31,938 nucleotides of DNA. Source: a virus. Under the pieces are notes generated by a model, which worked only from the letters and a program-made list of their open reading frames with translations, was not told where the DNA came from and made no database searches. The translations under genes and the position numbers were made by a program. The stretch lies in the UHGV virus genome UHGV-0224535; one strand, written 5' to 3'. Shown piece by piece: positions 7,213 through 7,863 of this stretch (within the stretch, counting starts at the first letter, position 1; each line of letters begins with the position of its first letter).

Positions 7213-7281
7213 ATGTTTACTTTCCTGCTAGGTGTATTTATCGGCATAGCTGTCGCTGTGATCTTGATATACGGACATTGA
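7213..7281 (+). CDS. micro-ORF 1 of a hydrophobic peptide array (22 aa, MFTFLLGVFIGIAVAVILIYGH)
   Basis: GGGGGTGA RBS; ATG overlaps the upstream stop (TGATTATG); single TM-like helix. Confidence 0.4.
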   Translation: MFTFLLGVFIGIAVAVILIYGH

Positions 7282-7285
7282 TATT

Positions 7286-7381
7286 ATGGACGCTTACATC
7301 ATCGCCGGATTAATCGGAGTTTCTGTATTTCTGGTTGGTTTTATTATAGCCGTACTGATAACCGTAATGAGCAAGTATTAG
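7286..7381 (+). CDS. micro-ORF 2 (31 aa, MDAYIIAGLIGVSVFLVGFIIAVLITVMSKY)
   Basis: ATG 4 nt after the previous stop; single TM-like helix. Confidence 0.4.
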   Translation: MDAYIIAGLIGVSVFLVGFIIAVLITVMSKY

Positions 7382-7394
7382 ATGGGGTGGCAAG

Positions 7395-7469
7395 ATGATT
7401 GACCTGCTCATTATCCTTTCTGCCTGCGTCGCTGTATGGCTGGCTATCATGATATTCATTGAAAGCTGA
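7395..7469 (+). CDS. micro-ORF 3 (24 aa, MIDLLIILSACVAVWLAIMIFIES)
   Basis: GGGGTGG RBS upstream; single TM-like helix. Confidence 0.4.
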   Translation: MIDLLIILSACVAVWLAIMIFIES

Positions 7470-7480
7470 AGGTATTCACC

Positions 7481-7561
7481 ATGAACGCATATGAAATGCT
7501 ATTGCTGGTGGCTGTAGTTGTAGTCATTGCCGTAGATGTTTATCGGGAGTTTAAAAAATGA
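7481..7561 (+). CDS. micro-ORF 4 (26 aa, MNAYEMLLLVAVVVVIAVDVYREFKK)
   Basis: AAGGT upstream; single TM-like helix with basic C-terminus. Confidence 0.4.
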   Translation: MNAYEMLLLVAVVVVIAVDVYREFKK

Positions 7562-7626
7562 AATGGCTTGATTTCTTTTTCCTGATCGTTGCGATTGTTC
7601 TTACCATGACCGCGTTAACTCAATAG
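7558..7626 (+). CDS. micro-ORF 5 (22 aa, MKWLDFFFLIVAIVLTMTALTQ)
   Basis: ATGA overlap with the previous stop; single TM-like helix. Confidence 0.4.
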   Translation: MKWLDFFFLIVAIVLTMTALTQ

Positions 7627-7634
7627 GTGAACGC

Positions 7635-7709
7635 ATGAATGCTATTGATATTATGTTGATCGTGTGTACCGTTGCGTTAATTATTATTGGGGTGATTATC
7701 AACGTCTGA
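7635..7709 (+). CDS. micro-ORF 6 (24 aa, MNAIDIMLIVCTVALIIIGVIINV)
   Basis: AGGTGA RBS; single TM-like helix. Confidence 0.4.
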   Translation: MNAIDIMLIVCTVALIIIGVIINV

Positions 7710-7725
7710 CAGTGACTTCTTAATT

Positions 7726-7770
7726 ATGGCTATATGCACGTTGTTAGTCGTTATCGTTTTCTTCGCATAA
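7726..7770 (+). CDS. micro-ORF 7 (14 aa, MAICTLLVVIVFFA); weakest of the array
   Basis: Hydrophobic but very short, no clear RBS. Confidence 0.2.
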   Translation: MAICTLLVVIVFFA

Positions 7771-7779
7771 AGGTAAACA

Positions 7780-7863
7780 ATGAAAGAGCTATTCGACTGG
7801 TTGGAAGTATTAACATACTGCGCAAGTTTTGTGGCTTGCGTATATATCATCAATAAATATTAA
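7780..7863 (+). CDS. micro-ORF 8 (27 aa, MKELFDWLEVLTYCASFVACVYIINKY)
   Basis: AAAGGT RBS; hydrophobic core. Confidence 0.4.
   Translation: MKELFDWLEVLTYCASFVACVYIINKY

Follow-up and report, generated by a model that had tools for sequence, protein, structure and literature searches.

Escherichia coli encodes a class of small single-pass inner-membrane proteins, among them YohP, AcrZ, KdpF, MgtS and MgrB, which are 20–50 amino acids (aa) long, consist of one transmembrane helix, were missed by annotation and are expected to insert into the membrane after translation. Where their function is known, small E. coli membrane proteins act by binding larger membrane proteins (reviewed in PMC12648545). 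Genes of this class are solitary and chromosomal, and usually lie beside their partner or are co-regulated with it. A tandem series of putative genes of similar build is described here, at positions 7213–7863 (+ strand) of the virus genome UHGV-0224535, a stretch of 31,938 nt that was analysed at full length and is called the window below. Unlike the YohP/AcrZ class, to which it has no sequence relationship, the array and its counterparts in related phages place 5–14 unrelated or distantly related genes head-to-tail in a phage late region. The reading favoured here, with a probability of about 0.5, is that the array would specify separately translated, late-expressed inner-membrane microproteins of N-out/C-in orientation that act by helix–helix contacts.

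Tandem, unannotated and very hydrophobic peptides, of 18–35 aa, are likewise encoded by the ibs-sib, ldr-rdl and zor-orz loci of E. coli (PMC2887945). The repeats of these type I toxins hardly differ from one another, and a promoter, a long structured 5' untranslated region (UTR) and an antisense RNA come with every copy, whereas the cassettes of the array differ from one another, lie 0–20 nt apart or overlap, and show no antisense signals. The array peptides have acidic N-ends, whereas in the toxins it is the C-end that is polar or basic. Single-gene lysis peptides such as the 37-aa LysM resemble the array peptides in their length of about 30–40 aa and their one transmembrane helix, with which they bind and inhibit a specific host membrane protein (PMC12506998); binding to specific membrane proteins is proposed below for the array. 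LysM-type genes are the sole lysis genes of single-stranded RNA or DNA phages, whereas the phage that carries the array has a full lysis cassette, and there is no homology.

The Pf3 coat protein and the M13 gVII and gIX proteins of filamentous phages are about 30–45 aa long and have an acidic N-tail that is translocated without a signal peptide, and their genes are small, adjacent and coupled, as in the array. They are virion parts of phages extruded through the membrane, whereas the phage with the array is tailed and has no known membrane assembly step. The staphylococcal psm-alpha operon similarly holds four tandem micro-open reading frames (micro-ORFs) of 20–22 aa with their own ribosome-binding sites, and long went unannotated. 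Its products, the phenol-soluble modulins (PSMs), are amphipathic, cationic and secreted, with hydrophobic moments of 0.53–0.66 against 0.12–0.44 for the array peptides and hydrophobicities of 0.33–0.50 against 0.64–0.98. Lambda S107, T4 Imm and Sp, HK97 gp15 and P22 SieA reside in the inner membrane and govern when lysis occurs or whether DNA enters, and the array resembles holin, antiholin and exclusion genes in lying in the neighbourhood of a lysis cassette. Holins, antiholins and exclusion proteins are at least about 60 aa long, as a rule with more than one helix or with large soluble domains, and each is the product of a single gene; the prophage is the source of exclusion proteins, whereas the array sits in the late region.

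The eight ATG-initiated micro-ORFs had been described from the letters alone (the sequence-only reading) as back-to-back frames for single-helix hydrophobic peptides of 14–31 aa. All are present on the + strand, are distributed over its three frames and together take up 91% of the interval; all peptides are hydrophobic and predicted to be of the single-helix type. The families named are those defined across 75 related loci, as set out below.

7213–7281, + strand: micro-ORF 1, family A, 22 aa, MFTFLLGVFIGIAVAVILIYGH, GxxxG present; family pN/pS (ratio of non-synonymous to synonymous polymorphism) 0.31, summed insertion free energy -3.9 kcal/mol
7286–7381, + strand: micro-ORF 2, family B, 31 aa, MDAYIIAGLIGVSVFLVGFIIAVLITVMSKY; 65/75 loci, pN/pS 0.26
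7395–7469, + strand: micro-ORF 3, family C, 24 aa, MIDLLIILSACVAVWLAIMIFIES; near-invariant core cassette, 69/75 loci, pN 0.044, pN/pS 0.27
7481–7561, + strand: micro-ORF 4, family F, 26 aa, MNAYEMLLLVAVVVVIAVDVYREFKK; 70/75 loci, pN/pS 0.24, N-end acidic and C-end basic
7558–7626, + strand: micro-ORF 5, family H, 22 aa, MKWLDFFFLIVAIVLTMTALTQ; 67/75 loci, pN/pS 0.19
7635–7709, + strand: micro-ORF 6, family I, 24 aa, MNAIDIMLIVCTVALIIIGVIINV; 54/75 loci, pN/pS 0.35
7726–7770, + strand: micro-ORF 7, family J truncated, 14 aa, MAICTLLVVIVFFA; internal ATG without Shine-Dalgarno sequence
7780–7863, + strand: micro-ORF 8, family M, 27 aa, MKELFDWLEVLTYCASFVACVYIINKY; at least 71/75 loci by motif, pN/pS 0.23

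The stop/start couplings reported earlier are real: TGAttATG (7208–7215) couples the stop of the preceding 185-aa gene to ORF1, and ATGA (7558–7561) forms the overlap of the ORF4 stop with the ORF5 start. Most of the ORFs do have their own Shine-Dalgarno sequence, a core of at least 4 nt standing ahead of 6/8 (ggggtgg upstream of micro-ORF 3, AGGTGA upstream of micro-ORF 6, and a core in 53/53 copies of family I); ORF2 lies 4 nt past a stop, and ORF7 has neither. The polar N-terminus, said often to read M-x-x-x-D/E, does so in three of the eight (ORF4, ORF5 and ORF6), the others having D2, D3 or E3/D6 and two being without any acidic start. At micro-ORF 7 the canonical family J ATG (7702–7704) is ACG in the window, a change that is synonymous within ORF6 (AAT>AAC). 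The same start-less allele occurs in four other loci (L065, L066, L068 and L069) and a full-length J of 22 aa (MSDxDFLI...) in about 45 others; micro-ORF 7 is probably a disabled or shortened cassette. The array is made up of seven intact separate genes and one without a start codon, closely packed.

Hydrophobic micro-ORFs were counted when their best 12-aa Kyte–Doolittle window reached at least 2.0, and the eight seen compare with 1.07 +/- 0.98 (maximum 5) in 2000 dinucleotide shuffles of the region; at a threshold of 2.9, seven were seen against 0.08 (maximum 2). The minus strand of the array region contains none, and the remaining ~62.6 kb of the window (both strands) contains 27, mostly alternative frames of real genes, against eight in the 0.65 kb of the array. 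T content is 36% in the array and 24.5% in the window, and T-rich sequence by itself gives hydrophobic ORFs (a general point; PMC11188072). This could be taken, together with the one window cassette that lacks its start, to mean that nothing here is functional and that the ORFs arose by chance in a T-rich spacer, are young de novo ORFs, or are the frameshifted wreck of a multi-pass membrane gene. The T-richness would itself be expected, because sequence coding for transmembrane helices is T-rich. An origin by chance or decay is scarcely credible given the shuffles, the Shine-Dalgarno sequence and ATG that go with each cassette, the gain and loss of cassettes as whole units, the want of a larger homologue anywhere in the searches, and the frame-specific purifying selection across 21 families and 75 loci.

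By megablast the window belongs to the mEp021 group (mEpimmI), with ~88% identity to seven GenBank records. The group consists of non-lambdoid coliphages of human faecal origin that are temperate and Nus-dependent; they are reported to be as frequent as lambdoid phages in human gut samples (PMC11893012). Related prophages were found in 35 of 5426 complete E. coli genomes. For comparison, 75 loci with defined boundaries were used, drawn from 7 phage records, 17 E. coli prophages, 4 contigs from metagenomes and 47 from IMG/VR, together with the window. Families were assigned against reference peptides; single-linkage clustering was discarded, as chimeras merged families.

Selection was measured per family in its own frame. 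Variable sites fell at codon positions 1, 2 and 3 in the numbers 169, 111 and 282 (chi-square p=3e-18), and pN/pS was 0.26 when pooled and 0.14–0.38 in families with more than two sequence variants, figures in which related, non-independent sequences are pooled and sites, not events, are counted. The direction and size of the effect were alike in every family with enough data, and the flanking genes gave pN/pS values of 0.13 (SprT-like) and 0.31 (terminase small subunit, TerS). Substitutions preserved hydrophobicity: polar, charged or Pro residues made up 11 of 235 replacement types in the helix core (4.7%), against 22.5% expected from single-nucleotide neighbours (p=3e-14), and the mean hydrophobicity change of replacements was -0.41, against -1.97 expected. 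The frames were preserved in every relative, and the scatter of indels or stops that the sequence-only reading had named as contrary evidence was not seen. Disrupted cassettes numbered ~11 of ~700, an approximate count, since true cases were sorted by eye and the tblastn census was swamped by N-terminal extension artefacts; start codons and frames were kept in ~98% of copies. Besides the J start-loss allele (five loci), the disruptions comprised two start losses, one stop and two frameshifts. Judged by these substitution patterns, the micro-ORFs are almost certainly real coding genes.

The array was present in every one of the 75 loci, with 3–13 hydrophobic micro-ORFs each at the threshold of 2.0 and a few weaker ones just below it, and covered ~89% of a gap of 319–1155 bp. 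The 21 families follow one consistent order, [A/a/o/y/z]-B-(d/n)-C-D-x-E-F-G-H-I-J-K-L-M, which is strictly fixed (166 ordered family pairs, 2786 co-occurrences, no inversion), and no family is present twice in any locus. Nearly every locus has families F, C, H, B and M; A, a, y, z and o are alternative first cassettes; M is always the last hydrophobic cassette, and is the least hydrophobic with a conservation among the highest. There are 49 cassette combinations, of which that of the window, A-B-C-F-H-I-J-M, occurs in 6 loci and is the joint commonest with one other (6). As read from these loci, the array is a fixed series of distinct genes that varies by presence and absence, not a copy-number array. 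The spacer and Shine-Dalgarno sequence move with each cassette. The C-to-D and C-to-F junctions have the same sequence as far as ATGAAY, so that deletions run from start codon to start codon; these start-to-start deletions involve cassettes that share their first codons.

The sequence-only reading had proposed repeated duplication of a mini-gene, and this stood in part. Some families are paralogous (d-F z=11, G-K 9.8, D-p 8.9, H-K 7.1, G-H 6.8), so that family F of micro-ORF 4 belongs with d, D and p, and family H of micro-ORF 5 with G and K; family pairs at p<0.01 numbered 23/210 against 2.1 expected, and an ancient duplication within a few superfamilies is supported by these peptide comparisons. 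It was not supported for the array as a whole: DNA tandem and direct repeats in the window were limited to 12–18-nt matches at chance level, and among its eight peptides ORF4/ORF6 is the one pair that exceeds shuffles (p=0.002), most of the eight appearing not detectably related. Because shuffling destroys the shared layout of polar head and hydrophobic body, the modest scores may reflect build, not descent.

Two observations on cassette content stand beside these comparisons. In one metagenome contig (L028, 3558–3802) a chimera joins the head of family B to the tail of family F at a VIAV motif common to both; family H is frameshifted there; the chimera may be a trace of recombination between paralogous micro-genes or a metagenome assembly error. 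Arrays are shortest in the OmpA-dependent phages mEp021 and mEp515 (L006 and L007), where C-F-G-H is joined by a divergent M (MKYLSSWFGVSIYFATLIECLYIVNKF), and the LamB-dependent phages (L002–L005) have 8–11 cassettes and the common M, a comparison of six phages only that is confounded by relatedness.

Across the loci the distance from the preceding stop is at most 20 nt for 96% of starts, and 31% of starts overlap that stop; a Shine-Dalgarno core of 4 nt or longer stands ahead of 78%, the background being 21%. The + strand of the array interior holds no promoter or terminator, and the region has fewer such sites than shuffles (3 promoter-like sites against 6.9 expected); the minus strand gave only two weak 9/12 matches and no conservation signal apart from coding periodicity. 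Since internal promoters and terminators are lacking and each cassette has its own ribosome-binding spacer or a stop overlap, the array would most likely share the transcription of the late genes, its cistrons being translated one after another through initiation or re-initiation. A structured RNA element was rejected: Rfam gave no match at E<=1, including Sib, Rdl, Sok, IstR and OhsC, and shuffled versions of the region fold just as well as the region itself (z=+0.79).

The peptides might nevertheless be by-products of a role at the level of RNA or translation, the array being a U-rich 650-nt block, ahead of the packaging and structural genes, that tethers late mRNA to the membrane, or a set of coupled mini-cistrons that meter ribosomes to TerS. 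Uracil content drives translation-independent binding of mRNA to the membrane in E. coli (PMC10066597), and the T-richness given above would suit such a tether; the tight coupling of the cistrons would suit metering, as would the stop of family M, which in most relatives abuts the TerS Shine-Dalgarno sequence (TAAGAGGTG). Selection acts, however, on amino acids in the frame of each cassette (the third-position excess, the pooled pN/pS and the avoidance of polar replacements), starts and frames are retained, there is no RNA structure signal, and an array length of 319–1155 bp would be odd for a metering device. By-product status is quite unlikely on this evidence; an RNA-level role alongside a peptide function is possible.

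Summed insertion free energy is negative for all eight peptides (-0.3 to -5.1 kcal/mol) and +14 for the neighbouring soluble 48-aa ORF, in line with predicted transmembrane helices. Uncharged stretches span 13–27 residues, several peptides contain GxxxG-type motifs (read directly), and AlphaFold2 predicts one helix for ORF2 (residues 3–30; predicted local distance difference test score 96). In hydrophobic moment and hydrophobicity (values above) the peptides group with KdpF, AcrZ and Ibs and apart from PSMs. In 17/21 families the N-flank carries a net negative charge, the net charge of the peptides is 0 to -2, and the charge bias favours N-out/C-in in 16/21 families and the opposite in 1. The peptides are very probably membrane-inserted, and for most of them an N-out/C-in orientation is likely; the acidic N-end would then be periplasmic and the C-end, neutral or basic, cytoplasmic. 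A chain of 22–31 residues would not yet have left the ribosomal tunnel at termination, so that insertion would have to come after translation, and insertion into the inner membrane would be assisted by YidC, SecYEG or the signal recognition particle (SRP). Sec-independent substrates of the YidC type, the Pf3 coat among them, typically have short acidic N-tails. The 27-aa YohP is inserted post-translationally via SRP with YidC or SecYEG (PMC7549839). By predicted properties the peptides fit the class of small single-pass inner-membrane proteins (fewer than 50 aa, one bilayer-spanning helix), which is a functional class and not one of homology.

Peptides of this kind could also act on the membrane in bulk, as type I toxin-like, holin-like or depolarising agents whose late non-specific damage aids lysis or host shut-down. 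Their size and hydrophobicity are like those of the Ibs and Ldr toxins, the array is near the lysis cassette, and tandem small hydrophobic ORFs are a search signature for type I toxins (PMC2887945); a 47-aa family of the relatives that is absent from the window (family L) has a weak match to a holin PHROG (E=0.04). Generic hydrophobicity would not, however, need the family-specific conservation observed (C: pN 0.044); the N-termini are acidic and the net charge is 0 to -2, in contrast to the usually cationic character of these toxins; and a full holin-endolysin-spanin set is already present upstream. No excess of antisense promoters, no Rfam antitoxin RNA and no room for a 5' UTR were found, nor any NCBIfam or Pfam toxin or holin family match. 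Bulk action is therefore held to be rather improbable.

The known classes were compared in the same way. The type I toxin-like role named in the sequence-only reading did not survive: small hydrophobic peptides are there, but the sequence gave no sign of an antisense RNA or of an own promoter and long structured 5' UTR, and Pfam and NCBIfam gave no toxin family at E<=1 beyond noise. Its suggestion of a holin or antiholin modulator kept only the position by the lysis cassette, as cassette content shows no covariation with holin alleles; holins and antiholins as a class were rejected, the peptides at 14–31 aa falling short of the usual build (about 60 aa or more, at least one transmembrane domain and a charged C-terminal tail) and the window's eight having no Pfam or PHROG holin match. 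A PSM-like or leaderless bacteriocin class was rejected on the hydrophobic moment of 0.12–0.44 and the net charge of 0 to -2, the peptides not being amphipathic and cationic.

No credible match was found for any peptide in Pfam, PHROGs, NCBIfam or PADLOC. A tblastn search with 13 concatenated families against 50,697 phages returned only the 7 mEpimmI records. For family L, 5.8 billion proteins contained only close relatives, and its profile found only itself among 1.84 billion representatives; the DNA pattern of the M cassette was absent from the GTDB species representatives, with IMG/VR matches confined to the same phage group. To the extent of these searches, the peptides are orphans of the mEpimmI group. 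That they would escape standard annotation was borne out: the Prokaryotic Genome Annotation Pipeline (PGAP) leaves the whole 750–1130-bp stretch unannotated in 17/17 RefSeq prophages, and a collection of 15 billion proteins holds exact copies of 2/8 peptides, the near-universal 24-aa and 27-aa ones being missing. PHANOTATE-based GenBank records call some micro-ORFs 'hypothetical protein', partly in wrong frames. No account of this array was found in the searchable literature, which yielded general small-protein catalogues, nor was any tailed phage found there with a series of transmembrane micro-genes that is as dense, keeps a fixed order and varies by presence and absence. Catalogues of enterobacterial microproteins of the PMC11188072 type may well contain individual members. 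The novelty lies in the tandem series; small phage membrane proteins are already known as a kind.

The surroundings of the array in the window are as follows.

5234–5434, + strand: holin (PF16080, E=2e-14)
5435–5926, + strand: lysozyme
5914–6384, + strand: Rz spanin, followed by a 268-bp spacer
6653–7210, + strand: 185-aa gene with HEAAHxxxH motif, SprT-like/zincin-like (phrog_1365, E=4e-30); context, outside the array
7873–8019, + strand: 48-aa acidic ORF, MVSNEELKMADEIRKALDAAENNETVYFSEREVEKMMDEFKLKFEKDN; soluble, non-hydrophobic, not of the peptide series
8030–8515, + strand: TerS, Sf6-type (PF20901, E=1e-36), downstream boundary of the array; the large terminase gene is next

The holin-endolysin-spanin set is complete and on the same strand, at a holin-to-array distance of 1.8 kb taken up by Rz, the 268-bp spacer and the 185-aa gene. 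The 48-aa ORF is an optional insert found in some relatives only, is 'hypothetical' in RefSeq and has no family match. The 185-aa protein has an invariant HExxHxxxH and a NETYAYM motif and a lysine-rich disordered tail, and its predicted fold, which is widespread in phages, resembles phage proteins annotated as SprT-like or metalloproteases; a pattern search for the gene gave no match in the GTDB representatives. A 45% identical homologue, Orf129 of the P22-like phages L, ST64T and epsilon34, also lies between the lysis genes and TerS and is followed by a 134-aa gene, not by an array; in HK620 and P22 a 33% homologue is located elsewhere, hkcC of HK620 standing alone.

These homologues bear on the idea that the peptides are partners or substrates of the SprT-like metallopeptidase, or assembly or virion-associated packaging factors. 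Coupling of the first cassette to the 185-aa gene is kept whichever family comes first, and the array lies directly ahead of TerS, TerL and portal, both of which would fit. The P22-like phages have the homologue at the same position without the array and hkcC stands alone, so that the 185-aa gene need not be accompanied by the array; in mEp013 an HNH gene splits the two; alleles do not covary; and peptides this hydrophobic are implausible as soluble virion parts. A role of this kind is very improbable.

Further features were noted in the region and beyond it. A basic 30-aa ORF, MKRRSQCFMSFLPLYKQEVKANQTGDYSDG, at 6568–6660 (+) shares 8 nt with the beginning of the 185-aa gene and extends across a weak terminator predicted in mEp021 and mEp013; its equivalent is an annotated coding sequence in phage MagusPhagus. 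HNH endonuclease insertions occur in the lysis-to-terminase region at 1033–1518 of mEp013 (L005), 1752–2273 of L025, and 1194–1718 and 2413–2985 of L028, between the 185-aa gene and the array in mEp013 and inside the lysis cassette in two metagenome contigs, which suggests that the region is a hotspot for homing endonucleases. At 23175–23384 (-) of the window two adjoining hydrophobic micro-ORFs, of 38 aa (MKIEVLALIAMGLIVFGVHAVDLDW...) and 26 aa (MNRVDEVIENVLVVAGAIVIVYAFLN), end a minus-strand gene block (to 24302) within the tail region; the pair may be a moron or exclusion module.

On the favoured reading, each helix of the array would bind a specific host or phage membrane protein late in infection. 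Conservation is family-specific beyond hydrophobicity, cassettes are individually dispensable and they vary independently, and for these reasons each helix probably recognises a particular membrane protein; we put action by specific helix–helix binding at roughly even odds. The 37-aa phage peptide LysM, which wedges into MurJ via transmembrane contacts and so blocks it, is the best precedent for such action (PMC12506998). From position and timing, the candidate processes would be lysis timing and the blocking of further DNA entry; either is named tentatively, and the peptides would be less likely than not to serve them.

Several points weigh against this reading. Cassette content shows no association with allele clusters of holin, the SprT-like gene or TerS (adjusted mutual information 0–0.25). 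ORF4 (-1.3 kcal/mol) and ORF8 (-0.3 kcal/mol) are marginal as transmembrane segments. The 49 combinations in 75 loci amount to a high turnover of cassettes, so that no single cassette would be indispensable, except perhaps M. A weak terminator predicted upstream of the 185-aa gene bears on the extent of the transcription unit, the selection figures carry the dependence among sequences stated with them, and the paper that defined the group in 2025 (PMC11893012) makes no mention of transmembrane or small ORFs here.

An unlikely alternative, more far-reaching in its content, is that the array would be a fixed-order combinatorial 'library' of transmembrane-helix ligands, each neutralising or re-tuning a different host membrane protein, for example membrane effectors of abortive infection or defence, toxin or colicin targets, or components of DNA entry. 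If so, the repertoire (49 combinations in 75 genomes) would track the E. coli strains that a phage can exploit, and the array would be the bacterial-virus counterpart of the principle of papillomavirus E5 and artificial 'traptamers'.

For the mEpimmI phages, up to about a tenth of the gene count (5–14 genes per genome) would lie in a stretch that is blank in RefSeq, and the array is a statistically solid case of selected microproteins far below the usual gene-calling cutoffs. Its 21 families, strict order and 49 presence/absence combinations form a built-in natural experiment; mEp021 and five relatives can be cultivated on E. coli K-12, and the mEp021 array, at 486 bp, has only five cassettes. 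Should every helix have its own membrane target, as the favoured reading holds, the array would be a toolbox of genetically encoded transmembrane inhibitors and a new category of phage accessory gene. If the peptides instead tune lysis or exclusion, they would add an extra layer to two classic phage problems.

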